Positions 23,285 to 37,893 of a DNA stretch of 64,000 bases are shown one piece after another. The notes beneath the pieces are model-generated. The model was not told the origin of the DNA. It was given only the letters and a program-made list of their open reading frames with translations, and ran no database searches. The DNA lies in assembly GCA_001916005.1 (NCBI GenBank), contig MNRP01000037.1, positions 1,631 to 65,630 on the forward strand, in the 5' to 3' direction. The position numbers were made by a program, and so were the translations under genes. The DNA comes from Clostridium sp. 26_22 (GTDB taxonomy: Bacteria; Bacillota; Clostridia; TANB77; CAG-508). Position 1 is the stretch's first letter. Each line of letters starts with the position of its first letter.

Positions 23285-23362
23285 GGTGAGTATAGCGTAG
23301 TTGGTTAACGCGCCAGTTTGTGGCACTGGAGACCCTGGGTTCGAATCCCAGTACTCACCCCA
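23285..23362 (+). tRNA. tRNA-His (anticodon GUG) with encoded G-1
   Basis: G-1 pairs with C73. The acceptor stem is GTGAGTA/TACTCAC and the anticodon loop is TTGTGGC. CCA is encoded. Confidence 0.9.
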
Positions 23363-23422
23363 GATTTTATATTGGGGTAATACTGAGAAAATCACCTAAC
23401 AAAATGGACAAGTAAATTATAT

Positions 23423-23497
23423 TGGGCTGTAGCCAAGCGGTAAGGCACCAGACTTTGACTCTGGCATGCGCAAGTTCGAATCTTGCCAGCCCAGCCA
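23423..23497 (+). tRNA. tRNA-Gln (anticodon UUG); integration target of the tandem elements
   Basis: The acceptor stem is TGGGCTG/CAGCCCA and the anticodon loop is CTTTGAC. CCA is encoded. The 3' end overlaps the 13-bp att core. Confidence 0.9.
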
Positions 23498-23499
23498 AC
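23487..23499 (+). repeat. att core copy 1 (attL of IME-1)
   Basis: CAGCCCAGCCAAC, identical to the copies at 33447-33459 and 42225-42237. Confidence 0.85.
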
Positions 23500-23513
23500 A
23501 AAATAATCGATGT

Positions 23514-23545
23514 AAATAGCTTGTATCAACAGATACAGGCTATTT
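23514..23545 (+). terminator. element-borne hairpin immediately after att core (substitute tRNA terminator)
   Basis: AAATAGCTTGTATC / GATACAGGCTATTT form a 14-bp stem (one GU). An identical structure is at 33474-33505. Confidence 0.55.
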
Positions 23546-23821
23546 ACTTATTTAAAACTAATTATAATTTTAAAAAATTTACAATATTTAATTTTCACTA
23601 GAGTTACATAGCTTTTCACGATTTTTAATTTATTTTAATTTTTAGTATTTCAAACAGATAACTCAACAATTTTAATTTTCAATACTCAACAATTTAATAT
23701 TGTTGAGTTAATATTAGCAATATAAAAGTAAAACATAAATTAGTAAAACGATATAATCAGTTTGTATCAATCATTATAAAAGAAAAATTTGTTGTGTTAT
23801 AAAACATACGTTTATATAAAT

Positions 23822-25027
23822 TTATCTTTCAAACTCTTCGATATTATTAACGTCATATAAAAGATTATTTCCTATTAAATTTTCATTAAGATAATACTGA
23901 TTGACCTTATCAAATTCTCTTTCTTTAAATTGTTCTAAAACAGAAGTATAAGTATTTAGAGTAACTGTAATATTTTTATGCCCCATTAATCTTTGAACTA
24001 CAACAGGAGCCATACCACTTTCAATGCAACGTGTTCCGAAAGTATGTCTTAAAGAGTGGCTAGAAATATCAGTAGTATTAAATTCTTGTTTGAATATTCG
24101 CTTTAGCTCATTATTTATTGTAGAACGTCTACAATATTTACTATTATTAGGCTTAAAAAGTAATTTTTCATCATTATTAATTTGCTTATTTGCTATTTTT
24201 ATTTGTTCTTTAATATAAGGATAAAGAAAGTAGGGGATAGGGATAGTTCTTTTGCCACTATATGTTTTTGTTTTATTACCCATAATAATATTTCCTTTTT
24301 CATCAGTTGTTAATGTACGAGATATATTTAATCTTTTATTTTTTAAGTCTATATCGTGTGTTGTAAGAGCTAAAGCTTCTCCGACTCTTAAGCCTGTATA
24401 CATTTGTAACAAATATACATTTCTATATTTAAATTCATCTATAGGCTTATCAACAAGCCAATTAGTAAAAGCTTCTTGTTCTTCAACCGTTAATGCACGT
24501 ACAACTTTATTTTCCCTATTGCTTTTTGGTCTAATAACATCAATCATTGGATTTTGAAGTATATATCCTTTATTCATAGCAATAGTAAAAGCTTGATTTA
24601 ATTGTTGATGAGCTTTTTCTATCATTGAATTACTTAAATTTTTTAGAGAATTTAAATAAGCTTGTAATTCATCTGTTTTTATTGTATCAATTTTTTTATT
24701 AGCAATAGGGTATTTTTCTAATCGTTTTATTGAATTTAATAATCTACCATATTGTGCAGGTCCAATTTTATTAGTACTATATTTAAGCTCCAAATTAGCT
24801 TTTAATATTTCAATTAAAGGTATTCCATTATGCTCAATATATATAGGATTTTCTTTTTGATACATAATGGTATTTAAAAAATTTTGTGCTTCTTGCTCTG
24901 TTTTAAAAGATTTTGTTTTTCTTAATCGTTTATTTTTTAATGCATCATATTCATAATATTGGGCTAGCCAATTTTTTCTTTGTTTATTGTAGTATATGGA
25001 ACCTTCACCTTTTTCTCTTGTTGCCAT
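23822..25027 (-). CDS. int: tyrosine recombinase/integrase of IME-1
   Basis: It has GLRVGEALAL (Arg), HSLRHTFGTRC (H-x-x-R) and LMGHKNITVTLNTYTSV (His...Tyr). Confidence 0.9.
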   Translation of the reverse strand: MATREKGEGSIYYNKQRKNWLAQYYEYDALKNKRLRKTKSFKTEQEAQNFLNTIMYQKENPIYIEHNGIPLIEILKANLELKYSTNKIGPAQYGRLLNSIKRLEKYPIANKKIDTIKTDELQAYLNSLKNLSNSMIEKAHQQLNQAFTIAMNKGYILQNPMIDVIRPKSNRENKVVRALTVEEQEAFTNWLVDKPIDEFKYRNVYLLQMYTGLRVGEALALTTHDIDLKNKRLNISRTLTTDEKGNIIMGNKTKTYSGKRTIPIPYFLYPYIKEQIKIANKQINNDEKLLFKPNNSKYCRRSTINNELKRIFKQEFNTTDISSHSLRHTFGTRCIESGMAPVVVQRLMGHKNITVTLNTYTSVLEQFKEREFDKVNQYYLNENLIGNNLLYDVNNIEEFER

Positions 25028-25030
25028 AAA

Positions 25031-25288
25031 TTACACCTCGCTTTCTTTTTTATGCATTTTCCATAATAAGTATGAAGCTAAAGTAACAGTTTTCCTTTTA
25101 CCAATCTGAAGAGAAGGGAAGTCTTTTTGTTTAAATAATTCATATGCTTGATTTATACCAATGCTTAAATCTTTTGAAACATCTGATACTGAAAGTGTAA
25201 TAAAGGGGTTCTTAATTTTGCTTAAATAATTTATTACTATTTGTTCTTTAGTATTATTTGTGCTAATATTTTCTTCATTAATATTCAG
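25031..25288 (-). CDS. xis: excisionase-like HTH protein of IME-1 lacking a canonical start codon
   Basis: An 85-codon frame homologous to 34980-35240 (...SVSDVSKDLSIGINQAYELFKQKDFPSLQIGKRKTVT...). At the position of the IME-2 ATG it has CTG, 9 nt after GGAGG. There is no in-frame ATG/GTG/TTG near the N-terminus. Confidence 0.5.
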   Translation of the reverse strand: MNINEENISTNNTKEQIVINYLSKIKNPFITLSVSDVSKDLSIGINQAYELFKQKDFPSLQIGKRKTVTLASYLLWKMHKKESEV

Positions 25289-25306
25289 TTTTTATACACC
25301 TCCATT

Positions 25307-25576
25307 TTATCTTTCATATTCATCATTATTAAATTTTGTATTTTTTCCTAGACATAGTCCATCTAAAAATATGCCTGCTTCATTCCATGTTTTAAAGCAA
25401 TTTTTTGAGTCTATAGAATACCAGTTTTTATCCTTTATATCTTTATCAATTAAAGCTATGGCTTTGTTATATGTATAAACATTAGAAATATTTAGTAATA
25501 TTAATTGTTTGTCAGTATCAGAAAGCATATATTTATTAAGTCCCTGTATTCTTTTTTGTAGTTCCTTTTTTGTCAT
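25307..25576 (-). CDS. hypothetical protein (IME core, homolog of 35255-35524)
   Basis: MTKKELQKRIQGLNKYMLSDTDK... The start was chosen by alignment with the IME-2 copy and the GGAG RBS. Confidence 0.6.
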   Translation of the reverse strand: MTKKELQKRIQGLNKYMLSDTDKQLILLNISNVYTYNKAIALIDKDIKDKNWYSIDSKNCFKTWNEAGIFLDGLCLGKNTKFNNDEYER

Positions 25577-26114
25577 TATTATCATCTCCATTATTTTTTA
25601 AAACTGTTGCTAAAGCTAATTGGATATTAATTAGCATGTTCATTAGTAATTTATCAAAAGGAGGGGAGTCACTATATTTGTTATTTCCGACACCTCTTTC
25701 ATATATAAATGGAAAATTTGATTTTCTTTGTTGAGGAGTTATTTTTACACTTTTAGCTGATTTACTAGTTAAATCTTTTGAAAACCATATAATATCTTCT
25801 TGTGAAATACTTTGAAATTCACGAGATTTTTTATCAATGTTAACTACGACTAAATCTCCTATAATTCGACGAAGGGGAAGAAATATATTAGGTCGCATAG
25901 GAGCTTTAGACTTATTATTATGACAAATAATAAATAGTTTCTCATATGGAACAATATCAAGATTTTTTTGTATAATTGCTTTTTTTAATTTATAGATGTT
26001 TTTAATAATTTTGACTTCTGGAGTTTGTCCAACTTTTTTGTATAAAACTCTGAGTGAATTTGTATTTTTAGTTTCTGGAATAATGTTCTTCTTTTTCAAA
26101 ATTAAACACCTCAT
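25536..26114 (-). CDS. hypothetical protein, DUF3846-like (IME core, homolog of 35521-36075)
   Basis: The pattern RVLYKKVGQ.PEVKII......LK.AI...LDI.PY...FIICH...K......N is reminiscent of DUF3846 proteins of conjugative elements. Confidence 0.5.
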   Translation of the reverse strand: MRCLILKKKNIIPETKNTNSLRVLYKKVGQTPEVKIIKNIYKLKKAIIQKNLDIVPYEKLFIICHNNKSKAPMRPNIFLPLRRIIGDLVVVNIDKKSREFQSISQEDIIWFSKDLTSKSAKSVKITPQQRKSNFPFIYERGVGNNKYSDSPPFDKLLMNMLINIQLALATVLKNNGDDNNDKKGTTKKNTGT

Positions 26115-26437
26115 TATCTTTCTTCATCGTCAATATGATTTTTTCCCTTATTTGATAGGGAACGTTTATAATCTTCTTTAGTATATTCTAAGCCGAATGC
26201 ATCATAATAAGCTCTAATAATTTCGTATGAAAGCCCATGTCTTTTGTTATTTTTTCTAGGATATACCTTCGGCCTAGCAGCATTATATCTCATACAATCT
26301 AACATATCTTTTAAATCCTCTAATAATTTAGCCTCACAGTAATATTTGGTTGTTACTTTATAAAACAAATCATAGATATGGCCAACTGTTTTTTTTGATA
26401 CTTCATTAGAAACAGAAAAATCAATTTCTTTGTCCAT
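26114..26437 (-). CDS. hypothetical protein (IME-1 only)
   Basis: It is tightly packed in the leftward operon and has no counterpart in IME-2. Confidence 0.5.
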   Translation of the reverse strand: MDKEIDFSVSNEVSKKTVGHIYDLFYKVTTKYYCEAKLLEDLKDMLDCMRYNAARPKVYPRKNNKRHGLSYEIIRAYYDAFGLEYTKEDYKRSLSNKGKNHIDDEER

Positions 26438-26454
26438 AATTTTAGCTCCTTTCT

Positions 26455-26811
26455 TTATTTTTTTAAGTTATTAGCTTTGTACAACGTCTGTAAGTTATAT
26501 TTAAAATGTCTTATTCCTTTTTCTCTTAAAGAGATAACTTTTTTCTTTTGTATTTTTAATCTTCTACAAATATCAATTAATTTACAATTTTCGACATATG
26601 TGAGATATAATACCTTTCGTTCCAGCAAAGGTACAATTTTCATTGCTAGATAATATAATTCGTTAGAAAATATATTTTCTAAATGATTTATATTAACATC
26701 TGAATTATCTATATCTTGAATTGATTTTTTATAATAGTTTTCTGAAATTATCTTTTGAATGTACTCATTAGGGAAGAGTATATATTTATTTGATTTTCTT
26801 TTATCTTTCAT
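26455..26811 (-). CDS. small sigma-70 region-4-like HTH protein
   Basis: LLERKVLYLTYVENCKLIDICRRLKIQKKKVISLREKGIRHFK resembles sigma region 4.2. The homolog is at 36059-36472. Confidence 0.55.
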   Translation of the reverse strand: MKDKRKSNKYILFPNEYIQKIISENYYKKSIQDIDNSDVNINHLENIFSNELYYLAMKIVPLLERKVLYLTYVENCKLIDICRRLKIQKKKVISLREKGIRHFKYNLQTLYKANNLKK

Positions 26812-27040
26812 AGTGAAACTCCTTAAATATATTAGACTTTCGAAAGTCTTTTAGTTCGAACTGAAATAATAATAGACTATAAAATATAACAATTGATATA
26901 AAATCGTGATAAAATCAGGTAAATTGAGATTAATTGATATAAAACGAAATAAACCGTTTTAAAAGATATATCATGATCTTTAAAACGGTTTATTTTTCTA
27001 TGTTTTAAATGCATATTAAAAAAATCTACGATAAATGGTA

Positions 27041-27757
27041 TTAGTATTCAAAATCTTCTTTATTTTCCATTTCAATATACCAAATATTTATATTTTCCAT
27101 CTTGCTAAATTCTTTATCTTGAATTTTTAAATATGCTAGCATTTCATCTGTAAAATCTAAATTATTCTTTGAAACTAAACATTTCCTAGCACTAGTATTA
27201 TATTTTGTATCTGTACAATAAAAAGCGCCTTTCATCAAATTATCAATACCATTAGAAATGTTTAAATTTATTTGAGAACATTCTAAACGCATACTTGTTG
27301 GCTTATAATTGTTAAATCTAAAAAATGCCATGAAATTGTCGGATTGCAAATAACCTTCTAAATAAATTTTTTTTGTTCTGCAATCAGCTAGTTCGATTTT
27401 ACAGTAATCAGATTTTTCTATAAGATTTATTACAAACTTACATTTATCATATTTATTTAATGTAGGGTAATAACCAATATAATAAACATATAAGGTATTA
27501 GTATTAAAAGGATTGATACTTTCTTTTTTACTAACAACTTTATCAAATTTGTTAAATAATTGATATTCTTCAATGTCTAATTCATTACATAGTAAATATA
27601 TTTCTTCTGCATTAGGTAGAAGAGTACCTTTTTCAAATCTACCAATAGTTGTTGCGCTTTTTTTAATAACTCTTCCTAGATTTTCTTGGCTTCTCCCAAT
27701 TTGTTTTCTAAATGCTTGTAATCTTCTGCCAAATTCTTTTCTATCAAACTCCGGCAT
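27041..27757 (-). CDS. XRE-family (Cro/CI-type HTH) regulator with about 170-aa C-terminal domain, first gene of leftward IME operon
   Basis: FGRRLQAFRKQIGRSQENLGRVIKKSATTIGRFEKGTLLPNAEEIYLLCNEL is a classic HTH_XRE. No S24 peptidase motif is present. Confidence 0.8.
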   Translation of the reverse strand: MPEFDRKEFGRRLQAFRKQIGRSQENLGRVIKKSATTIGRFEKGTLLPNAEEIYLLCNELDIEEYQLFNKFDKVVSKKESINPFNTNTLYVYYIGYYPTLNKYDKCKFVINLIEKSDYCKIELADCRTKKIYLEGYLQSDNFMAFFRFNNYKPTSMRLECSQINLNISNGIDNLMKGAFYCTDTKYNTSARKCLVSKNNLDFTDEMLAYLKIQDKEFSKMENINIWYIEMENKEDFEY

Positions 27758-27789
27758 AAAATCACTCCTTAAAAAATATCTACAACATT

Positions 27790-27818
27790 ATTATACCAGT
27801 TTTTTACAATCACATCAA
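27790..27818 (-). promoter_or_regulatory. leftward promoter of IME-1 (XRE operon)
   Basis: On the minus strand: TTGATG, a 17-nt spacer, then the extended -10 TGgTATAAT. Confidence 0.55.
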
Positions 27819-27839
27819 GTTATGTTAACTAAAAAAGAA

Positions 27840-27868
27840 TTGAACTTTACATAAAAGTATGATATAAT
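27840..27868 (+). promoter_or_regulatory. rightward promoter P1 of IME-1
   Basis: TTGAAC, a 17-nt spacer, then the extended -10 TGaTATAAT. It lies back-to-back with the leftward promoter, with 21 bp between the two -35 boxes. Confidence 0.6.
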
Positions 27869-27874
27869 TGTTAC

Positions 27875-28170
27875 AACTTTATAGTAAAAAGAATGGCTTA
27901 AAATCTTAATTAATCCATTCCGCAAGCGTAATGCTTGATGTTTAACTTAAAACATTCAGGCATTGCAGTTGCTTGGATTTTTTATACATACGAGATTTTA
28001 AACATTATGTGTTTTTCCGTTTGTATGAGGTTGAATTTTTACTTGAAGAATTTATTACAAAGGAGAGCACACATATGGAAGAGATGTTTGTAGGCGGACG
28101 GAAGTCCAGGTGGTTAGCCTTTCATAGGATGCCATTCAAAGACAGAGAGGGAGGGAAAATCCCTCCTTTA
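27875..28170 (+). ncRNA. candidate structured RNA-1 of the IME-1 switch region (P1 transcript, 5' domain)
   Basis: There is no ORF conserved with IME-2. The hairpin CAGGC[ATTGCAGTT]GCTTG spans 27957-27975. A loop GGAGAGCACACATA lies at 28062-28075. The GGAGGG/CCCTCC hairpin spans 28147-28169. The conserved 11-mer GGAAGTCCAGG is present. Confidence 0.5.
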
Positions 28171-28172
28171 TA

Positions 28173-28201
28173 TTGTAATTTATAAGTAATTAAGGTATAA
28201 T
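28173..28201 (+). promoter_or_regulatory. internal promoter-like site P2 of IME-1
   Basis: TTGTAA, a 17-nt spacer, then TATAAT. The same boxes and spacing are present in IME-2 although the spacer sequence differs. Confidence 0.5.
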
Positions 28202-28207
28202 AAAAAT

Positions 28208-28300
28208 AACTATTTAAACTAACTGCAATAGTTTGAATAGGGGCTATATAGCTAACAAAACACGGGAAGTCTATGTGTGTTCTCCTCCGTGTTTTGTTTT
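28208..28300 (+). ncRNA. candidate about 90-nt two-hairpin sRNA (RNA-2) or 3' domain of the P1 transcript
   Basis: SL1 (28210-28240) has an 11-bp stem with the loop AACTGCAAT. SL2 is AACAAAACACGG/CCGTGTTTTGTT followed by a U tract, and its loop contains TATGTGTGTTCTCC. Both loops are complementary to sites in RNA-1. Confidence 0.5.
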
Positions 28301-28387
28301 TTGCGTACAGTGCATTATTTTGTGAAGTTACTTAAAATTTATGAATAATATGGATAAAATTTAGTCTAAAAATAAAGAAATATACTT

Positions 28388-28433
28388 AAAATCTGCATAC
28401 TATGCAATTTTTAATGCGTAGCATGCAGATTTT
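28388..28433 (+). terminator. long hairpin plus T tract upstream of the Spo0A_C-like gene (attenuator/terminator)
   Basis: AAAATCTGCATACTATGC / GCGTAGCATGCAGATTTT give 17 pairs with one mismatch. The counterpart in IME-2 is at 38067-38112. Confidence 0.55.
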
Positions 28434-28511
28434 TATATTTTGACCAATTTACATAATCATAGTATAGTTTTAATAAATAATATAGTTTTTAACAGAAAGA
28501 GGGGAAAGAGA

Positions 28512-28865
28512 TTGCAAGATTTTGATAATAGACAATTAAATATTATAATTCGCAATAATCTTCGTTTATTAGGTATAAAATCTTGCAACAAAAGTACAAA
28601 GATGCTTGCGAAAACTATATTTTATATTAAAAGTAATAATATAATACTTGAAGATTATAAAGCTAATGAGATTTATTGTAGTATTGCAAAATTATATAAC
28701 AATACTACACCTAAGAATATAAAAGATAATATTGATTATGCTTTATCACATAGAGATGTATTAAAATCAAAGCAAAATTTTAAAAGAGTATTTAATTTTG
28801 AATATTCAGAAGATGTATTTACAAATAAGAATTTTATTGAAGAGTTTTCAAATATAATTAATTGA
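28512..28865 (+). CDS. Spo0A C-terminal (DNA-binding) domain-only protein, TTG start
   Basis: LRLLGIKSCNKSTKMLAKTI...IYCSIAKLYNTTPKNIKDNIDYALSH...FTNKNFIEEF is collinear with the Spo0A effector domain. The TTG at 28512 follows AGAGGGGAAAGAG. The ORF-track start at 28440 lies in the terminator T tract. Confidence 0.6.
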   Translation: MQDFDNRQLNIIIRNNLRLLGIKSCNKSTKMLAKTIFYIKSNNIILEDYKANEIYCSIAKLYNNTTPKNIKDNIDYALSHRDVLKSKQNFKRVFNFEYSEDVFTNKNFIEEFSNIIN

Positions 28866-29216
28866 TTGTAAATTCAACTTTATTAACTGAAATAGAAAAG
28901 CATATATAGAGGAATAAAAGTACCTAATTTTATTGTCAAAATTCTATAGAAATATGATACTCATCTTAGTAGATAAAACAAAGATAAAGAGAAATACAAC
29001 TTATTAATAAAAGAAATTTATAATATTATAGAAATTTAAATATAGCCAATATTAGAAAAAATATTTATTTTTACTTTTTTTTACCTTTTTATTCAAAAAG
29101 ACTAAATATATGATATTAATATTGTATAAAATTAGTACTTAATATTGAAACATAAATATCTTAATATGAAAGGAGGATAGAAAAATATAAATTTTTTATA
29201 AAGGGGGAATTATAGA

Positions 29217-30428
29217 ATGAAAGTATGGAAAATTTTTAGAAATATTATTAGTAGTATAATTGCTTTTATATTAATAAATAGTATGATTGTATTTTCTTAT
29301 GCAAGTGAACAAAATAAAGTAGATAAAAAGTTAGAACCTAATATAGAAGCAAAACAAGATGAAGAAATAAGAATAGAGAATAATAAAACTAGGATATTAG
29401 AACAGGAACTAGATTATTTAGTAAATATGAGAGTATATATTAAAAATGCATATACAGGAAAATATTTAGATGTAGCTGGTGGTAATATAGAAAATGGAAC
29501 TAATGTGCAACAATATGAATTTAATGGAACTAATGCACAAAAATGGGGATTATATTCTTATGGAGATGGAAATTATACAATAGTATCTGAGCTTAATAGT
29601 GATGGTACACATTATAATAGGGTTTTAGATGTAAGTAACGGATTAAATGGAGAAAATATAAATGTTCACTTATGGGAAAATAATGGTAGTGATGCACAGA
29701 AATTTTCTATTTGTAAAACAAATTATAGTACTTATGTAATATTTTCAAAAGTCTCAAATTATGAAAAATGTGTACAATTAGATGGATTCCCTTGTAATAA
29801 TAGTGCAAATGTAGATCAATATTCATGGGTAGCAACTGCTAATCAATGTTGGATTCTTGAACCTGTATATGAAACTCCTAGCTTTGGAGTTAGATATGCT
29901 AAAGATACTTATAATTTAGGAGTTCATGCGTATCCAGATATGAGAGACTGGGGGGCAGATTGTACTAATTTTGTATCTCAATGCTTATTAGCTTCTGGCA
30001 AACATTATCAAGATAATTGGAAAGTTTATCGCAAAAACGATGCTTATAGTAAACCTACTAGTGTACAACAATTGGATGAGTCATGGGAACTTTGCCAACC
30101 TAAAACCAGTCCATGGACTAGTGCCCAAGAGTTTTATAACTACTGGAAAAATCGTTCTTCATATCGTTATATAAAAGGATCAGATATTGTTGCAAATAGT
30201 TCTAATGCAGTTTTGCAAACAAACTTAAATGAGGGAGATGTAATTCAATATGCAGAGTTTAATATATTTGGTCAACCGTCACAAGTTAACCACACAATGT
30301 ATGTAACAGGAAGAAATAGTAATAACTATTATTTAACGTATCATTCGGAATCAAGACTAGATAAAAGCTTAGTTGAGATATGTAATGATTTACCAAATAA
30401 GTATTTTATATTTTACAGAATAATGTAA
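29217..30428 (+). CDS. secreted ricin-B-lectin plus amidase-like (Cys) domain protein
   Basis: It has a signal peptide, Q-x-W-type trefoil repeats (NAQKWGL, DAQKFSI, NQCWIL), and a C-terminal GADCTNFVSQCLLASG as in putative amidase (Amidase_6-like) domains. Confidence 0.6.
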   Translation: MKVWKIFRNIISSIIAFILINSMIVFSYASEQNKVDKKLEPNIEAKQDEEIRIENNKTRILEQELDYLVNMRVYIKNAYTGKYLDVAGGNIENGTNVQQYEFNGTNAQKWGLYSYGDGNYTIVSELNSDGTHYNRVLDVSNGLNGENINVHLWENNGSDAQKFSICKTNYSTYVIFSKVSNYEKCVQLDGFPCNNSANVDQYSWVATANQCWILEPVYETPSFGVRYAKDTYNLGVHAYPDMRDWGADCTNFVSQCLLASGKHYQDNWKVYRKNDAYSKPTSVQQLDESWELCQPKTSPWTSAQEFYNYWKNRSSYRYIKGSDIVANSSNAVLQTNLNEGDVIQYAEFNIFGQPSQVNHTMYVTGRNSNNYYLTYHSESRLDKSLVEICNDLPNKYFIFYRIM

Positions 30429-30470
30429 AATATGATAAAATATTATAATAAAGAAAAGGGGGATGAAATT

Positions 30471-30989
30471 ATGAGAAAAAAAATATTAATTGGAATAATA
30501 ATAATGATAGCTATTCTTATTCCTGTAGTAGTATTTGCACTTAAAGAGAATAGTTTGTATTTACCTCCAGCTGGACCAGAGAAAATAACAAAAAATTATA
30601 GTGAAATTAGTTCTAATAGTATTACTACATCTGAAACATCTGAATTGACAGAGAATGAAAGTAAAATGATACAACAAATGCAACAAGAATCAGAAGAATA
30701 TCAGAAAAAAAATGAAGAGGCAAGAGAGATATTAAGAAAGTATAATCCTAATACATTTGATGAATTATATGAAACGAACATAGAAAATTATGAGAAAAAG
30801 GGATTTCACGATTCTGAACTTACAAATGAAGAAAAACAATTATATAAAATGATTATTGATACATATGAAAATGATAATTTGGATGAAAATGAAAGAAATA
30901 TTTTAAAACAACAAATAGAAGAAAATTATGATTATATAAGGAGTATTCCGGGTCTACAAGAAAGAGCAGATAAGATTTTAAATAAATAA
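30471..30989 (+). CDS. membrane-anchored acidic protein (possible partner of the amidase-like protein)
   Basis: GGGGGA RBS, then ATG 30471. It has a single N-terminal TM helix and an E/N/K-rich ectodomain. Confidence 0.5.
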   Translation: MRKKILIGIIIMIAILIPVVVFALKENSLYLPPAGPEKITKNYSEISSNSITTSETSELTENESKMIQQMQQESEEYQKKNEEAREILRKYNPNTFDELYETNIENYEKKGFHDSELTNEEKQLYKMIIDTYENDNLDENERNILKQQIEENYDYIRSIPGLQERADKILNK

Positions 30990-31070
30990 TATAATGGCTA
31001 ATTATTAAGGAGGAATACTCTAATAGGAGTTTTCTCCTTAATTTGAATTTGAAAATGTAAAGGGGAAAAA

Positions 31071-31787
31071 ATGATTAATATTTTAGTGGTAGAAGATGAT
31101 ATTATTCAATTAAAACAAATCATTAATTATATATCACAAAAAAATGAAGATATTAAATTATATGGACTAACATATTCAGGAGAAGAAGCATTAAAATTAT
31201 TAATGACAGGAAAAATTGATATTATTATTTTAGATTTAAAATTAGATGGTATGAGTGGTGTTGACGTTATAAAGTATATTGAAAGTAAGAAAATAGAAAA
31301 ATATAAGAAGTCAATTATAATTGTTTCAGGCGAATATAATATGATTAAAGACATATATACTAGTATATATGTCTATGAAATTTTTTTAAAACCATTTAAT
31401 CTATACTCTTTAAATAAATCTATTGAAGATATAATATATGAGAAGAAATATGCTAATGAAATAAAAGAAAAAATACGTAGGGAATTAGACTTACTTAATT
31501 TTAATTTTACTCATGAAGGAAGTAAATATTTATTGGAATGCATTTATCAAGTATATACTTTAGAGTATATAGATGATATGAATTTATCAAAAATTATTTA
31601 TCCTATTTTAGCTAAGAAATATAAAAAAACAGTTAACACAATATATGGAAACATAAAACAAGCGATAAATTCAATGTTTGATAATTGTCCCAAGAAGGTT
31701 TTAAAAAACTATTTTAATTTTAATTGTTTAATAAAACCTAGACCTAAAGAAGTAATTTATACTATTTTAAATAAAATTAATAATTAA
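31071..31787 (+). CDS. Spo0A-like response regulator (receiver + Spo0A_C DNA-binding domain) carried by IME-1
   Basis: The REC residues are VVEDD, IIILDLKLDGMSG, IIVSG and FLKPF. The C-terminus IYPILAKKYKKTVNTIYGNIKQAI...KPRPKEVIYTILNKI is collinear with Spo0A LYPxIAKKYxTTxSRVERAIRHAI...KPTNSEFIAMIADKL. Confidence 0.7.
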   Translation: MINILVVEDDIIQLKQIINYISQKNEDIKLYGLTYSGEEALKLLMTGKIDIIILDLKLDGMSGVDVIKYIESKKIEKYKKSIIIVSGEYNMIKDIYTSIYVYEIFLKPFNLYSLNKSIEDIIYEKKYANEIKEKIRRELDLLNFNFTHEGSKYLLECIYQVYTLEYIDDMNLSKIIYPILAKKYKKTVNTIYGNIKQAINSMFDNCPKKVLKNYFNFNCLIKPRPKEVIYTILNKINN

Positions 31788-31968
31788 AAAATAACTTTAA
31801 ACGATTAATGGATTAGTGCTAAGACTATTTAAAGATAAAAGAAAATTACATAAATATACACTATATATAAAATGTAAAAAATGTTAAAAATGCTTATTCT
31901 AAAATAAAACTTGAATAGGCATTTAAGATTTGAGAATAGATAATAAGATGTTATAATTTTATATTTTT

Positions 31969-32922
31969 TTATTTTTCAAAATATTGAACAAAATTATTTA
32001 CTATACGTTTAAATCTATCAATAGGAAAACTAAATAGATTTTTTACAACTTCAAAAGTTTTTTCAATATAATTTTTTAATCTATAATTTTCTTTCTTTAA
32101 TTCTTCATTTTCATATTTTAAATTAGTATTTTCTTGTTGTAATTCTTCTAGCTTATTAATAGCTGTATATGATTTACTTAATTGAACTTTTAATTTGTTT
32201 GTATATTTAATTAATTCCTTGTTTTGTTGAATTATTAAAGAGGTATCTTTAGTATATATAGGTTGTATTTGTTCTTGTGTTAATTCATATTTTATATTAT
32301 CATAATTTGTTATTTGCTTTAATTTTTCCGTACTTAAATGCTCAACGTTTCTTGTTTTTCCTCTTTCTAAATTGAATCCATTATTTTTTATATATAGATA
32401 GAAACTATCTTGTAATTGTTGATAACTATTTTTTCCTTTCCAATATTCGCTACAGGCAATTTTATTCACTTGTTTTCTAGTTTTTTTATCTATTTTAGAA
32501 ACAACAGGAACAAAAACTAAATGCAAGTGGGGAGTGCTTTCGTCCATATGAACTTTAGCAGATAATATGTATTTTTCTCCTAAATTCTTATAATTAGCAA
32601 CAAAGTCATAAGCAGTTTGAAAGTATCTTTTTGTTTCATTTTCTCCGATTGAGTCAAAAAATTCTTTATCAGATGTAATAATAAATTCACATACAAGATT
32701 AGTATAACTTGTAATTCTACACTTTAAATCATTTTCATCTATTAATTGTTTAATAGCTCTTGAATAGGTAGTATTACATTGTTTGATTGAATAATTATTA
32801 ATAGAATTGTTTTTATTAATATCTTTGTTAGAGTAATTAGTATTTTTCCTTTCTGTGTGTTTATATAGCCCAGGTAAATTATCTCTTTTATAATTTGCAT
32901 TTCTAATTATTGCATAACTCAT
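31969..32922 (-). CDS. mob: MobV-family relaxase (Mob/Pre)
   Basis: The N-terminus is MSYAIIRNANYKR...YKHTER and the motif is HMDESTPHLHLVFVPV (HxDExxPHxH). The start is taken at the internal Met because the upstream ORF extension covers the oriT repeats. Confidence 0.85.
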   Translation of the reverse strand: MSYAIIRNANYKRDNLPGLYKHTERKNTNYSNKDINKNNSINNYSIKQCNTTYSRAIKQLIDENDLKCRITSYTNLVCEFIITSDKEFFDSIGENETKRYFQTAYDFVANYKNLGEKYILSAKVHMDESTPHLHLVFVPVVSKIDKKTRKQVNKIACSEYWKGKNSYQQLQDSFYLYIKNNGFNLERGKTRNVEHLSTEKLKQITNYDNIKYELTQEQIQPIYTKDTSLIIQQNKELIKYTNKLKVQLSKSYTAINKLEELQQENTNLKYENEELKKENYRLKNYIEKTFEVVKNLFSFPIDRFKRIVNNFVQYFEK

Positions 32923-33008
32923 TTTTATAATTCCTTTTTTAAAAGATAGCCTTCGAAGGCTTACAAAAATAAATACCTCCTTTGAATTTCTTAATAGAAA
33001 ACTTTTAT

Positions 33009-33074
33009 GAAGTTCTAACACACTAGAACTTCACGGAAGTTCTGTGTGATTAAGGACAACTTTGTTTTCCTTAA
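33009..33074. other. oriT-like overlapping inverted repeats of IME-1
   Basis: The arms GAAGTTCTA (33009), TAGAACTTC (33024) and GAAGTTCT (33036) allow alternative hairpins. They are followed by GTGTG and the TTAAGGA/TCCTTAA IR. The block lies immediately upstream of the relaxase gene. Confidence 0.55.
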
Positions 33075-33086
33075 TAATCCTTTTTT

Positions 33087-33308
33087 GCACGATTGAATAT
33101 TATATTTATTAAAATTAATTTAATAAATACCATAAAATAATTATTAATTATTTTGTTTAATATTCTAATCGTGTTATAAGAACCTGACCCACTTATGCAA
33201 TCAAAGATTGCTAGTGGGTACCCCAGAACCTTTTTGCTTGCGCAATAAAAATATTCGCTTTATTGCTCATATTTTTATAAATAGATTTTGCTAAATGCAA
33301 AATCTATT
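33087..33308. other. highly structured non-coding block (single-strand-origin-like?) near the right end of IME-1
   Basis: The GCACGATTGAATATT / AATATTCTAATCGTG IR flanks an AT-rich core. There is an ACCCACT/AGTGGGT hairpin and a 12-bp perfect hairpin AATAGATTTTGC/GCAAAATCTATT. The block is conserved at 41144-41361. Confidence 0.3.
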
Positions 33309-33446
33309 ATCTAGCATTGGCTAAAGTAGTATTTTATTTCTATTCATTTTTATTATTTTTTAGTAATTTATTTTCATTTCTAATTTTCAAACAACTAACT
33401 CAACAAGTATAGCTCAAAGTCTTGATAGTAGTGAATGTAGTCAGGA

Positions 33447-33459
33447 CAGCCCAGCCAAC
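33447..33459 (+). repeat. att core copy 2 (junction IME-1/IME-2)
   Basis: CAGCCCAGCCAAC. Confidence 0.85.
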
Positions 33460-33473
33460 TAAATAATTGATGT

Positions 33474-33505
33474 AAATAGCTTGTATCAACAGATACAGGC
33501 TATTT
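33474..33505 (+). terminator. element-borne hairpin after att core (IME-2 copy)
   Basis: The same AAATAGCTTGTATC / GATACAGGCTATTT hairpin as at 23514-23545. Confidence 0.5.
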
Positions 33506-33773
33506 ACTTGCTTAAAACTAAATATAATTTTAAAAAATTTTCAACATTTAATTTTCATTAGAGATATATAGCTTTTCACGATTTTTAATTTATTTTAATT
33601 TTAGGTATTTCAAACAACTAACTAAACAAATCTATTTGTAATAATTAAAAAATATGTATTTGTTTAGTTAGTATAAGACATTTGTGTCAAACATAAAAAT
33701 TAATAAATTTGATAACCCACTAATATCAATACTTACATGTTTTTTTGTGTTTAGTTAGTGTAAAATAACATAG

Positions 33774-34976
33774 TTATATTTCTTTTTCATTATCATTTTT
33801 TTCAGAAATTAAATTAGTTCCTATTAAATTTTCATTCAGATAATATTGATTAACTTTGTCAAGCTCTCTTTCTTTAAATTGCTCTAAAACAGAAGTATAT
33901 GTATTTAATGTGACTGTAATATCTTTATGTCCCATTAATCTTTGAACTACAACGGGAGCCATACCACTTTCAATGCAACGTGTTCCAAAAGTATGTCTTA
34001 AAGAGTGGCTAGAAATATCAGTAATATTAAGTTCTTGTTTTAATATTCTCTTTAGCTCATTATTTATTGTAGAACGCCTGCAATATTTACTATTATTAGG
34101 TTTAAAAAGTAGTTTTTCATCATTATTAATTTGTTTGTCAGTTATTTGCATTTGTTCTACAACAAAAGGATAAAGAAAGTCGGGGATAGGGATAGTCCTT
34201 TTACCACTATATGTTTTTGTTTTATTTCCCATAATAATATTTCCTTTTTCGTCAGTTGTTAAAGTTCGATGTATATTTAATCTTTTATTTTTTAAGTCTA
34301 TATCGTGTATTGTAAGGGCTAAAGCTTCTCCAACTCTTAAACCGGTATACATTTGCAATAGATATACATTTCTATATTTAAATTCATCTATAGGCTTATC
34401 AAGAAGCCAATTAGTAAAAGATTGTTGTTCTTCAACAGTTAATGCACGTACAACTTTATCCTCTTTGTTACTTTTAGGTCTAACTACATCAATCATTGGA
34501 TTTTGAACTATATATCCTTTGTTCATAGCAATAGTAAAAGCTTGATTTAATTGTTGATGAGCTTTTTCTATCATCGAATTACTTAAATTTTTTAGAGAAT
34601 TTAAATAAGTTTGTAATTCTTCTGTTTTTATTGTATCAATTTTTTTATTAGCAAGAGGGTATTTTTCTAATCGTTTAATTGAATTTAAAGTTCTACCATA
34701 TTGTGCAAGTCCAATTTGATTAGTACTATATTTTAGTTCTAAATTAGCTTTTAATACTTCGACTAAGGGTATACCATTATGTTCTATATAAATAGGATTT
34801 TCTTTTTGATACATAATTGTATTTAAGTATTTTTTAGCTTCATTTTCTGTTTTAAAACTTTTTGTTTTATATTTCATTTTACCTGTTTCAGTATCATATT
34901 CTTTATATTGAGCGTTCCACTTTTTTCTTTGTTTATTATAATATATCGAACCTTCGCCATTTCCTTTTGATGACAT
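33774..34976 (-). CDS. int: tyrosine recombinase/integrase of IME-2
   Basis: It is collinear with 23822-25027 and most residues are identical by eye. The catalytic R, H-x-x-R and H...Y are present. Confidence 0.9.
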   Translation of the reverse strand: MSSKGNGEGSIYYNKQRKKWNAQYKEYDTETGKMKYKTKSFKTENEAKKYLNTIMYQKENPIYIEHNGIPLVEVLKANLELKYSTNQIGLAQYGRTLNSIKRLEKYPLANKKIDTIKTEELQTYLNSLKNLSNSMIEKAHQQLNQAFTIAMNKGYIVQNPMIDVVRPKSNKEDKVVRALTVEEQQSFTNWLLDKPIDEFKYRNVYLLQMYTGLRVGEALALTIHDIDLKNKRLNIHRTLTTDEKGNIIMGNKTKTYSGKRTIPIPDFLYPFVVEQMQITDKQINNDEKLLFKPNNSKYCRRSTINNELKRILKQELNITDISSHSLRHTFGTRCIESGMAPVVVQRLMGHKDITVTLNTYTSVLEQFKERELDKVNQYYLNENLIGTNLISEKNDNEKEI

Positions 34977-34979
34977 AAA

Positions 34980-35240
34980 TTACACCTCGCTTTCTTTTTT
35001 ATTCATTTTCCATAATAAGTATGAAGCCAAAGTAACAGCTTTTCTTTTTCCAATTTGAATTGAAGGAAAGTCTTTTTGTTTGAATAGGTCATAAGCTTGA
35101 TTTATTCCAATATGTAAATCTTTTGATACATATGATACAGATAATGTTGAAAAAGGATTTTGTACTTTGTTTAAATAATTTATTATTATTTGTTTTCTTA
35201 AATCTTCTTTCGCATTAGTTATATTTAATTGATTATTCAT
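34980..35240 (-). CDS. xis: excisionase-like HTH protein of IME-2
   Basis: An ATG follows GGAGGTG. The sequence is ...SVSYVSKDLHIGINQAYDLFKQKDFPSIQIGKRKAVT... It ends 3 nt before the int start. Confidence 0.65.
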   Translation of the reverse strand: MNNQLNITNAKEDLRKQIIINYLNKVQNPFSTLSVSYVSKDLHIGINQAYDLFKQKDFPSIQIGKRKAVTLASYLLWKMNKKESEV

Positions 35241-35254
35241 TAAAACACCTCCAA

Positions 35255-35524
35255 TTACCTTTCATAATTTTTATCATTAAAATTTGTATTTCTTGCTAGA
35301 CAAATAACATCTAAAAAAGCTTCTGCTTCGTCCCAAGTTTTAAAACAATTCTCATTATCTATTCCGTACCAATTAGTTTCAGTGTTATTTCTATTAATTA
35401 ATGCAATAGCTTTATTATAGGTATAATCACTTGAAATATTTAACATTAATAATTTTTTATCAGTATCAGATAACATATATTCATTAAGTCCTTGTATTCT
35501 TTTTTGTAATTCTTGTTTTTTCAT
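35255..35524 (-). CDS. hypothetical protein (IME core)
   Basis: Homolog of 25307-25576. Confidence 0.6.
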   Translation of the reverse strand: MKKQELQKRIQGLNEYMLSDTDKKLLMLNISSDYTYNKAIALINRNNTETNWYGIDNENCFKTWDEAEAFLDVICLARNTNFNDKNYER

Positions 35525-36075
35525 TTTTTATCATCTCCATTATTCTTTAAAATCTTAGCTAAAACTAGGTTTAAATGAATTAATATCTCAAATAAAATTT
35601 GTTCAAAATTCTTAGACGTAAAATATCCATTATTTTTAAAAGCTTTTTCATAAACATCTGTAATAGGTATTACTTTTTTTATATTAGATGATTTAATATC
35701 AACTTTTTTAGGAGATTTATTGTTAATATCTTTTGAATACCATATAATATCTTCTTGAGAAAGACTTTTAAATTCTCGTTCTTTTTTGTCTATATTTACA
35801 ACAATAAGATCTCCTAGTATTCTTTTAAGTGGTAAAAATATATTAGGAAACATATTTGAATTTGATTTTTTGCTATGACATATAATAAAAATTTTTTCGT
35901 AAGGAATAATATCTAAACTTCTTTCAATAATTGCTTTCTTCAATTTGTAAACATCACTAATAATTTTAACCTCTGAAGGCTGACCTACTTTTTTATATAA
36001 AACTCTAATAGGATTTTTACTTACATCATTAGTTTTAGAAGATAACAGATGTTTATTTTTAATTCTTTTTATCAT
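35521..36075 (-). CDS. hypothetical protein, DUF3846-like (IME core)
   Basis: Homolog of 25536-26114. Its stop overlaps the next start (ATGA). Confidence 0.5.
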   Translation of the reverse strand: MIKRIKNKHLLSSKTNDVSKNPIRVLYKKVGQPSEVKIISDVYKLKKAIIERSLDIIPYEKIFIICHSKKSNSNMFPNIFLPLKRILGDLIVVNIDKKEREFKSLSQEDIIWYSKDINNKSPKKVDIKSSNIKKVIPITDVYEKAFKNNGYFTSKNFEQILFEILIHLNLVLAKILKNNGDDKK

Positions 36076-36472
36076 TTTTTGAACCTTTCTTTAATTTTTC
36101 AGATTTATATAAAATTTCTAGGTTATGCTTAAAATGATTTATTGCTTTACTTCTTAATGAGATTACTTCATTTTTTCCTAATTTTAATTTTTTACAAATA
36201 TCATTTAATCTGCAATTTTCAATATAAGATAGGTATAGTACTTTTCTTTCAAGTAATGGAACTATTTTCATTGCTAGATAATAAGTTTCATTAGTAAAAA
36301 TATTTTCTAAATGATTAATGTTTACATCTGCATTATCTATATCTTGCATAGACTTTTGATAATAATTATTTTCAATTATTTTAATAACTTTCTCATTATC
36401 AATTATTGTTTCAATAATTGATTGAAAAGTTTTTTTGTTTTTTGATAGATTTAATATTTTTTCATTTTTCAT
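36059..36472 (-). CDS. small sigma-70 region-4-like HTH protein
   Basis: LLERKVLYLSYIENCRLNDICKKLKLGKNEVISLRSKAINHFK. Homolog of 26455-26811. Confidence 0.55.
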   Translation of the reverse strand: MKNEKILNLSKNKKTFQSIIETIIDNEKVIKIIENNYYQKSMQDIDNADVNINHLENIFTNETYYLAMKIVPLLERKVLYLSYIENCRLNDICKKLKLGKNEVISLRSKAINHFKHNLEILYKSEKLKKGSKNDKKN

Positions 36473-36744
36473 TTTTTTAAACCTCTTTTCAAAAAAGATT
36501 AGATTTCTAGAAATCGTGTAATTGTTCGAACTGGTTATATAATATAGTGGGAATGAGATAAATTGTATTTTTGTAAAGAAATTAAATAAAAAGTATAAAG
36601 ATGTAATAGTTTGTAAGAAAATTATAAAAAGAAAAAGCTATATAAATAGCTCTAATAGTGACGTTAAAAGATTTGTTCACAGAATTTACGTGAATAAAAA
36701 ATAACACTTAAAATAGATTATACTTTAAGTGTTATTTTTTATTT

Positions 36745-37473
36745 TTATTCATTTTCAAAAGCATATGTATCTGTTATATCAAGATATAAAATATTATGCT
36801 TATTTAGAGTTTCTTTTTCAACATCTGAAACTTTTAGTTTTTCTAATAATTCGTCTGTAAAGTCTACATCATCTTTAGAGAGAATACATTTTCTAATACT
36901 AGGAATATATTCACCATTGGTGCAATGAAAAGTTCCTAACATTAGCTTATTTGTTCCTCTAGCTATATTTACTATGATATGTGAAAGCTCAAAACGTAAA
37001 TTGTTTTCCTTATAATTTTCAAAGACAAATACTGAAATGTGTTGGTCAGCTTGTAAATATCCCGATAGGTAAATATAATCTTCTTTATAGTCCATAAAAT
37101 CCACTTTGCATAAATCTGGCTTTTGAATGATTTTTAATCGAAATTTACCTTTTCCATATTTTTTTGATTTTGGATAATATGCAATGTAATATAAATAAAG
37201 TATATCTGCATTAAAAGGGTTTCTTTCAGTTTCAATATTATTTATCTTTTTAGCACTATTAAATAGTTCATATTCATAAATACCTAATTCATTGCAAATT
37301 AAATATATTTGTTCTGCATTAGGTATAATTTCGCCAGTTTCATATCTAGCAATAGTTGCAGGTGTTTTATTTAGTAACATTGCTAGATTTTCTTGACTTA
37401 AACCTTTAGCTTTTCTAAACTTCCTTATATTGTTTCCAAACTCTTTTTTATTAAAGTTAGACATATTATTCAC
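36745..37473 (-). CDS. XRE-family regulator with C-terminal domain (IME-2)
   Basis: The HTH is FGNNIRKFRKAKGLSQENLAMLLNKTPATIARYETGEIIPNAEQIYLICNEL. It is clearly more diverged from its IME-1 counterpart than int or mob are. Confidence 0.8.
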   Translation of the reverse strand: MNNMSNFNKKEFGNNIRKFRKAKGLSQENLAMLLNKTPATIARYETGEIIPNAEQIYLICNELGIYEYELFNSAKKINNIETERNPFNADILYLYYIAYYPKSKKYGKGKFRLKIIQKPDLCKVDFMDYKEDYIYLSGYLQADQHISVFVFENYKENNLRFELSHIIVNIARGTNKLMLGTFHCTNGEYIPSIRKCILSKDDVDFTDELLEKLKVSDVEKETLNKHNILYLDITDTYAFENE

Positions 37474-37489
37474 CTACTTTACATAACAA

Positions 37490-37518
37490 AATTATAACAT
37501 ATTATTACTATATAATCA
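37490..37518 (-). promoter_or_regulatory. leftward promoter of IME-2
   Basis: On the minus strand: TTGATT, a 17-nt spacer, then TATAAT. It sits at the same position relative to the XRE start as in IME-1. Confidence 0.55.
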
Positions 37519-37545
37519 ATATAACTGTTGTAGACACCAGTAAAA

Positions 37546-37574
37546 TTGCCATTTTTAACAAAATATAGTATAAT
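37546..37574 (+). promoter_or_regulatory. rightward promoter P1 of IME-2
   Basis: TTGCCA, a 17-nt spacer, then TATAAT. Confidence 0.55.
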
Positions 37575-37580
37575 AAAAAT

Positions 37581-37845
37581 ACTATATAGTAGAAAAGATG
37601 GCTTTGAGCTATTTATCAAGTTGTAATACTTGATTCGATTATGATAATTGTTTCAAGTATTGCAACTACTTGGACTTTAGGATACAACATTTGTTATCCT
37701 CTTTTATCATAATCGTTTTTAACTTATAGAATATCTATTGGGGAAGGAGAACAACAAATGGGAAGTCAAGAATTTTGTATTGACGGTGGAAGTCCAGGAG
37801 CCTCGAACCGTCTATCTGAAAGAGGAGGGTAAGATTTTCCCTCCT
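37581..37845 (+). ncRNA. candidate structured RNA-1 of the IME-2 switch region
   Basis: The hairpin CAAGT[ATTGCAACT]ACTTG spans 37654-37672. GGAGAACAACAAATGG lies at 37746-37761. The GACGGT/ACCGTC helix encloses GGAAGTCCAGG. The GGAGGG/CCCTCC hairpin spans 37824-37844. Confidence 0.5.
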
Positions 37846-37858
37846 AACATCTTATATA

Positions 37859-37887
37859 TTGCAAATACTATAAATATTTAGTATAAT
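37859..37887 (+). promoter_or_regulatory. internal promoter-like site P2 of IME-2
   Basis: TTGCAA, a 17-nt spacer, then TATAAT. Confidence 0.5.
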
Positions 37888-37893
37888 TAAGTT

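Follow-up and report, generated by a model that had tools for sequence, protein, structure and literature searches.

A putative same-strand RNA module with two covarying long-range pairings in tandem integrative mobilizable elements of Clostridium sp. 26_22

What occupies the gene-free gap of about 750 nt that separates the XRE gene from the Spo0A_C-like gene in an integrative mobilizable element (IME) from Clostridium sp. 26_22? The gap belongs to a 64,000-nt stretch of contig MNRP01000037.1 (the window, to which positions refer unless another locus or an alignment is named; G+C content 26.7%), in which two related elements, IME-1 and IME-2, stand in tandem at 23286-41077, adjoining tRNA-His and tRNA-Gln. 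In IME-1 it is bounded by the XRE gene on the minus strand (27041-27757; HTH_3 domain) and the Spo0A_C-like gene on the plus strand (about 28512-28865). A first-pass annotation, made from the letters of the window, had described here a non-coding module running from a promoter to a terminator, with two crossing long-range complementarities, and all the sequences and coordinates that it gave were exact when we re-read the window. Loop A, ATTGCAGTT (27962-27970, in the hairpin CAGGC/GCTTG), does match loop B, AACTGCAAT (28221-28229, in the hairpin 28210-28240), and GGAGAGCACACATA (28062-28075), which covers a Shine-Dalgarno (SD) sequence and reaches an AUG, pairs with TATGTGTGTTCTCC (28272-28285; the anti-SD) through 13 Watson-Crick pairs plus one G.U pair. 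The promoter-like sites P1 (TTGAAC-17-TGaTATAAT, 27840-27868) and P2 (TTGTAA-17-TATAAT, 28173-28201), the arms of the terminator hairpin T2 (28254-28265 and 28287-28298) and the two copies of GCTTG (at 27933 and 27971) are likewise located as described.

The fold of the region is much more stable than that of shuffled sequences (z = -6.5). However, of 300 dinucleotide shuffles of 27840-28303, 170 contained an exact inverted repeat of 9 nt or more: a 9-nt repeat is unremarkable by chance, and the case therefore rests on the comparison of copies.

Covariation of the two long-range pairings

We traced XRE homologues found by protein search (43-95% identity) to their contigs, and a metagenome scan with the XRE alignment added 60 loci; a scan of genome contigs returned near-identical copies only, the diversity coming from the protein search with its contig look-ups and from the metagenome scan. 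The stretch from the XRE gene to the Spo0A_C gene is about 800 nt long and free of called genes in all XRE groups but one (L019-L021). From genomes and metagenomes together, 37 distinct modules were assembled into alignment A3, and 28 allele combinations were distinguished in an anchor-based analysis.

The two crossing complementarities are borne out by extensive covariation in the 37-copy alignment. In a formal count over A3 that took in the local hairpins H1, H2, HA and HB, the loop-loop (kissing) interaction and the SD duplex, 95.7% of cells were paired, against 84.2% in column shuffles, and changes on both sides were seen at 31 pairs, against 17.5 expected; none of 500 column shuffles, a null that is not phylogeny-aware, reached the real alignment on any measure. 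Sliding the partners by 1-3 columns lowered pairing to 32-46%. The loop-loop pairing is complete (9/9) in nearly all copies, with 99.1% of cells paired, double changes at six of the nine pairs and two to four Watson-Crick pair types at each of loop positions 3-8. The SD duplex is more variable still in its letters: three to five Watson-Crick pair types occur at each of its positions 5-16, and cognate SD and anti-SD segments nevertheless form 12-21 contiguous pairs (median 15), compared with a median of 6 for non-cognate combinations (mean duplex dG of -26.4 versus -13.9 kcal/mol). When the longest inverted repeat was sought in each copy without guidance, the SD/anti-SD repeat ranked first in most copies, at 13-22 nt exact and with widely differing sequences (for example GGGAGCAGTTCAGCCAATGAAA, AGGAGACCAACAAAATGGAAAA and GGAGAGTGAGCAA). 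RNAalifold, which cannot model the kissing interaction, also chooses the SD:anti-SD helix unaided as part of the consensus. Wobble pairs in the local hairpins are G.U in 94 instances and A.C in one, and the structures are therefore those of a plus-strand RNA and not of DNA. Judging by their sequences, the alleles of the loops and those of the SD assort independently: in L015, L061 and L066 a single SD allele occurs alongside three different loop alleles. We hold it almost certain, on this comparative evidence, that both long-range pairings are real and maintained.

The nearest comparison is inside the window. The first-pass annotation had noted here no ORF that is conserved in the sister element; in fact the same module lies on the plus strand of IME-2 at 37546-37980 (read from 37474-38190 and aligned with IME-1), its pairings kept by compensatory changes. 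It comprises P1' (TTGCCA-17-TATAAT, 37546-37574), a hairpin with loop A' AUUGCAACU (37659-37667), the SD' and AUG (37746-37761; SD' segment GGAGAACAACAAATGG) of a leader open reading frame (ORF) at 37758-37832, the GGAGGG/CCCTCC hairpin T1' (37823-37845), P2' (TTGCAA-17-TATAAT, 37859-37887), a hairpin with loop B' AGUUGCAAU (37908-37916), and T2' (arms 37937-37943 and 37966-37972) with the anti-SD' CCATTTGTTGTTCTCC (37952-37967). The IME-2 loops, also written ATTGCAACT and AGTTGCAAT, and the SD pair GGAGAACAACAAATGG/CCATTTGTTGTTCTCC are perfectly complementary in letters unlike those of IME-1, and the loop changes between the two elements are compensatory (G-C to A-U, U-A to C-G). Cognate pairs within IME-1 and IME-2 reach 9/9 in the loops and 15-18 pairs at the SD. 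The downstream RNA of IME-2 (RNA2, see below) placed on the IME-1 leader makes seven Watson-Crick pairs plus two G.U pairs in the loop and nine pairs at the SD; that of IME-1 on the IME-2 leader meets two mismatches in the loop. The cross-pairs being weaker, cross-talk between IME-1 and IME-2 should be weak and asymmetric. Elsewhere in the window we found no second target of the anti-SDs or of loop B beyond chance.

Leader RNA, leader ORF and the putative RNA2

P1 is an extended -10 promoter on the plus strand, conserved in the homologs, and the leader RNA that it would produce (RNA1) probably starts near 27875. P1 and P2 each score 10/12 as sigma-70-type sites, and no conserved promoter was seen on the minus strand. 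The 5' part of RNA1 is built of alternatives. GAAUGGC (27891-27897) has a local partner, CCAUUC at 27915-27920 (hairpin H1; 99.5% paired, double changes at four of six pairs), and a distal one about 240 nt downstream, GCCAUUC at 28131-28137, with which it makes a 5'-3' closing helix of RNA1 (97.7% paired, double changes at five of seven pairs); the minimum free energy (MFE) fold of RNA1 takes the distal helix. Hairpin H2 (CAAGC-GUAAU-GCUUG, 27923-27937; 99.5% paired) can give way to a helix in which its loop and 3' arm pair with the 5' arm of HA and the constant part of loop A (27957-27966). This helix, which holds the attenuator-like GCTTG/CAGGC alternative noticed at the first pass, is 96.5% paired (alignment columns 92-101/126-135), shows double changes at four pairs and would hide loop A.

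Hairpin HA itself (27957-27975) presents loop A, AUUGCAGUU (27962-27970), as the target of loop B. Further on, ahead of the SD, comes a conserved box UUGAAUUUUUACUUGAAGAAUUUAU (28031-28055), whose UUGAA pairs with a UUCAA lying further upstream so as to enclose HA and the next hairpin; in the IME-2 group the corresponding segments are ATTCAATTATGAT/ATCATAATTGAAT. The target of the anti-SD (28061-28077) consists of the SD (AGGAG), a hypervariable spacer and an invariant AUG (28075-28077). The TTACAAA/TTTGTAG stem that the earlier reading had placed around this segment is present in the IME-1 MFE fold and shows no obvious conservation, as judged by eye only. Downstream of the distal partner of GAAUGGC follows directly the G-rich hairpin T1 (GAGGGAGGGA/UCCCUCCUUU, 28147-28169), conserved in structure and followed by a U tract in only 17 of the 37 copies, with an A-rich tail in the IME-2 group. 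We have rejected T1 as the general terminator of a separate RNA1 on this ground; since it is no conserved terminator, transcripts from P1 would usually pass P2 and carry loop B and the anti-SD in cis.

The first-pass annotation had denied the gap any conserved ORF. As far as the peptide goes this stands, but every copy has a short leader ORF with a conserved SD, a spacer of 7-11 nt and an invariant AUG. It has 36 codons in IME-1 (28075-28185, plus strand) and 10-55 codons overall. Among the copies we found no conserved protein-coding frame: frame and stop position vary, and a conserved protein in the gap is rejected accordingly. Many of the leader peptides have h-C/F-x-G/D-G-R in common, and several ORFs end right after GGR; no hydrophobic helix or segment occurs in the leader peptides. 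At the nucleotide level the ORF contains a conserved block, GGNCGGWWGYCCWGG (28093-28113 in IME-1, 37783-37800 in IME-2), which is read in the other frame, as GGSPG, in IME-2, L005, L008, L068 and L073. The block includes CGG, expected to be a rare codon in so A+T-rich a genome. A mini-hairpin inside the block (here GGACGGAAGUCC) was considered and dropped: the third pair of this hairpin is not kept, and RNAalifold predicts only GG/CC. Translation of the ORF is probably real, because the AUG is kept also in alleles whose duplex stops short of it, and the ORF is probably a translated leader without a conserved protein product.

The 3' part of the module could be made separately, as a small RNA (sRNA) of about 96 nt in IME-1 (RNA2; 28208-28304, plus strand). 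The suggestion, made at the first pass, that P2 (28173-28201) is a promoter gains weight from the copies: TTG and TAnAAT are invariant and the spacer drifts in sequence in every copy but the decayed L087, so that the hexamers are kept at 17-nt spacing in 36 of 37. Hairpin HB (28210-28240; loop B AACUGCAAU, 28221-28229) begins a few nucleotides past the P2 -10 box and is 99.0% paired, with double changes at six of eight pairs. A small hairpin (28243-28252) comes next and then T2, with the anti-SD in its loop and a U tract behind it; the T2 stem is 94.5% paired and a U tract directly 3' of it is present in all copies. The predicted length of RNA2 is 87 nt in IME-2 and rises to about 125 nt where there is a middle hairpin. 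A profile search of all collected loci found RNA2 solely beside RNA1. With the invariant hexamers, the position of HB, the U tract of T2 and the constant company of RNA1 all pointing the same way, we consider a separate transcript from P2 likely.

Three copies depart from this plan. L087 is decayed, its loop A and anti-SD being mutated and its P2 spacer 20 nt long. RNA1 stands without P2 and RNA2 in L001 and L084, where the 3' half is replaced or deleted; in L001:3580-4000 and L084 (~100-400, a reverse-complemented upstream stretch) P1, loop A and the SD are retained together with an intact leader ORF. The ORF region of L084 is followed by a different terminator and then directly by the hairpin S1 described below. 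As a further detail of RNA2, the 5' side of loop B (28218-28222 and homologous positions) reads CUAA or CUAG in most alleles. Such letters resemble the YUNR U-turn motif of antisense-RNA recognition loops.

T2 and the SD duplex share letters in most alleles: UCCCGUGU, the 3' arm of T2, has part of its sequence in common with the anti-SD (..UUCUCCC), and the 5' arm of T2, ACACGGGA, mimics the SD. In the alignment the T2 stem occupies columns 523-531/560-567 and the SD duplex columns 247-262/543-561, with columns shared; because of this overlap the long-range helix and T2 should exclude each other in these alleles. For the whole transcript from P1 to T2, the SD:anti-SD helix is found in the MFE fold of 29 of 36 alleles (median pair probability 1.0).

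Between T2 and the Spo0A_C-like gene three more features follow on the plus strand. S1 is a small hairpin with a covarying stem, UGCGU-ACA-GUGCA and then UUAUUUU (28302-28320; stem 28302-28314); T3 is a long hairpin of 16 pairs with many double changes and a U tract (28388-28434); and directly after T3 comes P3 (28440-28468), the promoter that serves the Spo0A_C-like gene. The spacer of P3 holds a near-invariant TTTACATAA, of which the P1 spacer has a looser copy. Across elements the type of the S1 stem (TGCAC or TACGT) tracks the base of T3, which hints at an alternative pairing or a shared binding protein.

A possible brake on rightward transcription, and rival explanations

How might these parts work together? 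P1, which faces away from the XRE repressor gene, would drive a highly structured leader that displays loop A and then, about 100 nt further on, the SD and AUG. P2 would give RNA2, about 90-125 nt long and made of the loop B hairpin and the terminator hairpin T2. In cis the SD segment would pair with the anti-SD and act as a distal antiterminator of T2, so that P1 transcripts read through; we assign it this part because the SD duplex shares nucleotides with T2 in most alleles. RNA2, acting in trans, would dock on the nascent leader by the kiss between loops A and B and then zip up 12-21 bp over the SD and AUG. Loop A is transcribed about 100 nt ahead of the SD, and about 250 nt ahead of the partner segments carried in cis. 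Bound there, RNA2 would block translation of the leader ORF and, by replacing the identical cis copy, leave T2 free to form, with the result that P1 transcripts stop. With RNA2, each element would in this way encode its own specific brake, or immunity factor, on rightward transcription. The pairing letters differ per element and assort independently, and each element should therefore answer mainly to its own RNA2. Variability is highest at precisely those positions that are paired, which indicates an RNA partner and not a ligand; a riboswitch or T-box leader was rejected for the same variability of paired positions together with the lack of an Rfam match.

From these comparisons we infer that P2 is active, that RNA2 works in trans, that read-through at T2 is what it controls and that a brake is the final output; for the whole chain, in which RNA2 binds the leader in trans, blocks the ORF and restores termination at T2, we would put the probability at about 0.55. 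Several observations pull against it. P2 activity and the ends of both RNAs are read from sequence. Seven of the 36 alleles, IME-1 among them, keep T2 and not the long-range helix in the MFE fold of the long transcript, and in IME-1 and in a second clade of modules the anti-SD lies wholly in the T2 loop with no stem overlap; there the exclusion would be steric only, 0-1 nt joining a helix of 14-15 bp to the 3' arm. RNA2 is dispensable for carriage of the element, because L001 and L084 exist without it. The P1 transcript has its own loop B and anti-SD, and trans action must therefore win a kinetic race. S1, T3 and a promoter of its own, P3, stand between T2 and the Spo0A_C-like gene, so that read-through may never reach the gene: either it must pass S1 and T3, or the RNA pair may be self-contained.

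Could a single pseudoknotted P1 RNA of about 430 nt do the work in cis, as a leader, an attenuator or a non-coding RNA, with P2 weak or irrelevant? T1 being no conserved terminator, both partners would normally lie on one transcript, and the long-range helix dominates the predicted ensemble in most alleles; pLS20, moreover, has a leader attenuator that works through a distal antiterminator and for which no trans factor is known (PMC13401043). We find this doubtful all the same, since invariant hexamers around a drifting spacer are the pattern of a promoter and not of a linker, and since a device confined to cis offers no reason for the rapid and independent diversification of two pairing sites, a diversity of alleles that typifies antisense immunity in trans. 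That the pair is self-contained, with RNA2 repressing leader translation or stability, or signalling exclusion or identity, and with T2, S1 and T3 insulating P3, appears to us decidedly unlikely. It would account for the three conserved terminator-like hairpins in tandem before P3 and for an SD and AUG that are invariant and always covered or flanked by duplex, and the diversity of alleles fits immunity; it would have to do without the peptide as a probable output, given that neither length nor frame is conserved, and without any other target in the window, and it leaves the systematic overlap of the anti-SD with the 3' arm of T2 unexplained.

A small ORF on a mobile element, its SD masked by an sRNA, also brings to mind a type I toxin-antitoxin system, in which a toxic ORF would be held by the 5'-3' fold-back and by RNA2 as the antitoxin. 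The module shares with hok/sok and with par of pAD1 the fold-back with a local alternative, the masking of the SD and a combination of loop and dispersed complementarity, and its closing helix with an alternative local partner recalls fbi/tac of hok mRNA. However, the peptides of 10-55 amino acids have no hydrophobic helix and are not conserved, two frames are in use, several stop at 10-13 codons, the regulator is on the same strand, and copies lacking the sRNA are viable, L084 even retaining an intact ORF; a toxin is thus very improbable. Finally, inverted repeats in an intergenic region between two genes for DNA-binding proteins might be recombination sites, or operators bound by the protein of either gene (XRE or Spo0A_C-like), and have no role as RNA. 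We give this next to no credence: the wobble ratio speaks against DNA, the repeats sit in the loops of covarying hairpins, one of them being an SD plus AUG and the other lying inside a terminator, and 12-21 nt of freely varying sequence are unfit as a protein site.

Only tentatively, and as less likely than not, do we suggest a more general and hitherto undescribed principle, namely that the leader's terminator domain is expressed twice, that the free copy competes with the cis copy for an antiterminator which is at the same time the ribosome binding site of the leader ORF, and that the two pairing sites (the 9-nt kiss and the 12-21-nt duplex), evolving independently, make up a private code for each element. 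Related elements at one tRNA site, or entering the same cell, would then be regulated or excluded separately, and no RNA-based immunity system would have been known before this one for the integrative mobilizable elements of Gram-positive bacteria. The control of integrative mobilizable and conjugative elements in Firmicutes is usually told in terms of protein repressors, to which the module adds a layer of RNA. It offers a testable model of how tandemly accreted elements avoid cross-talk, and its dozens of compensatory alleles are a natural library of orthogonal sRNA/target pairs.

Known systems, breadth and setting

No known RNA family accounts for the module, in agreement with the first reading. 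An Rfam 15 cmscan of the whole window at gathering thresholds returned three tRNAs only, the C4 antisense RNA (RF01695) not being matched, and at a permissive cut-off (E = 10) the stretch 27700-28520 matched nothing but miRNA hairpins, all of them spurious. To judge from sequence and from the missing Rfam match, the module is a new RNA family that current annotation pipelines miss, and a literature search, within the limits of the library searched, found no description of it.

The closest relative in design is the c4 antisense RNA of phages P1 and P7, reportedly the subject of Citron and Schuster's work of 1990. The c4 RNA is encoded on the same strand as its target, the icd-ant mRNA, and pairs with it through two short complementary segments, one of them over the ribosome binding site (RBS) of a small leading ORF. 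It takes only a few changed bases in these segments to make a heteroimmune allele, and the leader controls downstream transcription. Our module agrees with the c4/CI class in that regulator and target are co-directional and paired by short inverted repeats (both sets on the plus strand), in that one target segment is the RBS of a leader ORF, the duplex running from (A)GGAG to or past the AUG, and in that the alleles are element-specific (28 combinations), with specificity at the level of sequence only. It has no similarity of sequence or structure to c4, and the hosts are Clostridia and not enterobacteria. Whereas c4 lies upstream of its target and is cut from a common transcript, the putative sRNA of the module lies downstream of the target and has its own promoter; where regulators of the c4/CI class are released by RNase P processing, a conserved P2 precedes the sRNA; and in place of Rho-dependent polarity there is an intrinsic terminator that is itself part of the sRNA. 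The c4 reference and Rfam family (RF01695) are covered in PMC2864571.

In the satellite phage P4, whose CI RNA pairs through seqB with seqA and seqC, and in Gifsy-1, with its IsrK RNA, a leader-derived RNA pairs with nascent transcripts of its own unit; this pairing decides between premature termination and translation, and the RNA acts as an immunity factor (PMC4825925). CI differs from RNA2 in being processed and in having targets on both sides, it lacks the arrangement of a kissing loop with a terminator loop, and there is no homology. By analogy we would class the module as a variant of same-strand antisense immunity, and not as a member of the c4 or CI families.

A second line of comparison is with countertranscript attenuation. 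In pT181, pIP501/pAMbeta1 and Anti-Q/Qs of pCF10, loop-loop contact of an sRNA with the nascent leader prevents an antiterminator from forming, and the intrinsic terminator forms instead; replication or conjugation genes are thereby held off, and binding must happen in a short time window. Those sRNAs come from the opposite strand and are fully complementary to their targets, whereas the module has both partners on one strand and two maintained inverted repeats only, its sRNA being in effect a free copy of the leader's own terminator domain. Among Gram-positive mobile elements, the pLS20 family has cATT, a zipper-type attenuator whose leader is about 450 nt long and whose default antiterminator is a segment lying far upstream; the trans factor of cATT is unknown, and its authors, who also mention pCF10, speculate on an unknown counter-transcript (PMC13401043). 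The long leader and the distant segment complementary to the terminator are common to cATT and the module. However, the cATT antiterminator is a nested extension of one long stem, while the partners in the module are about 200 nt apart and their pairings cross; the kissing loop, the SD/AUG, the independently covarying hairpins and the internal promoter between the partners set the module apart. An RNA of the RNA2 type is a candidate for the trans factor of the long-leader attenuators of conjugative plasmids (PMC13401043).

The module occurs widely in gut metagenomes of humans and mice; a single XRE variant is indexed in 350 collection blocks. In the second clade (L019-21, L075-77) the XRE protein is 41-43% identical and nucleotide profiles do not detect the module, and the plan is the same: P1, an H2-like hairpin, an HA loop AUUGGGG or AUUGAGG, an HB loop CCCAAU or CCUCAAU, and then S1, T3 and P3. 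The segment before the AUG (AGGAATTCTAACA or GGAATCCCAAC) is complementary to the T2 loop. In L019-L021 (locus 137-2442) the XRE gene is separated from the RNA module, itself intact, by an inserted pair of AbiEi/AbiEii-like genes.

As to the elements themselves, IME-1 also carries an integrase gene (23822-25027, minus strand), a gene for a DUF3846 protein, a Mob_Pre relaxase gene (31969-33021, minus strand) and cargo genes. Its gene order is repeated in IME-2, where the XRE gene lies at 36745-37473 (minus strand) and the Spo0A_C-like gene at 38191-38601 (plus strand). BLASTN with the region and TBLASTN with the XRE protein against phage and plasmid collections gave no match, and a scan of IMG/VR with the XRE alignment found no relatives, so that the element corresponds to no known phage or plasmid. 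The cargo past the Spo0A_C-like gene differs per element (an Mrr-type nuclease, a deacetylase, a lectin-amidase, or a response regulator with Spo0A_C), and in L005 and L006 (463-943) an IS200/IS605-type Y1 transposase gene adjoins the Spo0A_C-like gene. At the other end of the gap a promoter-like site of the XRE gene (TTGATG-17-TGnTATAAT, 27790-27818, minus strand) and P1 stand back to back. In L068 and L087 the first 115 nt upstream of the XRE gene contain a 16-nt perfect inverted repeat, AATTATACCATATTTT/AAAATATGGTATAATT, that spans two -10 boxes, that of the XRE promoter and that of P1 facing the other way, and may be a shared operator, or merely two extended -10 elements.

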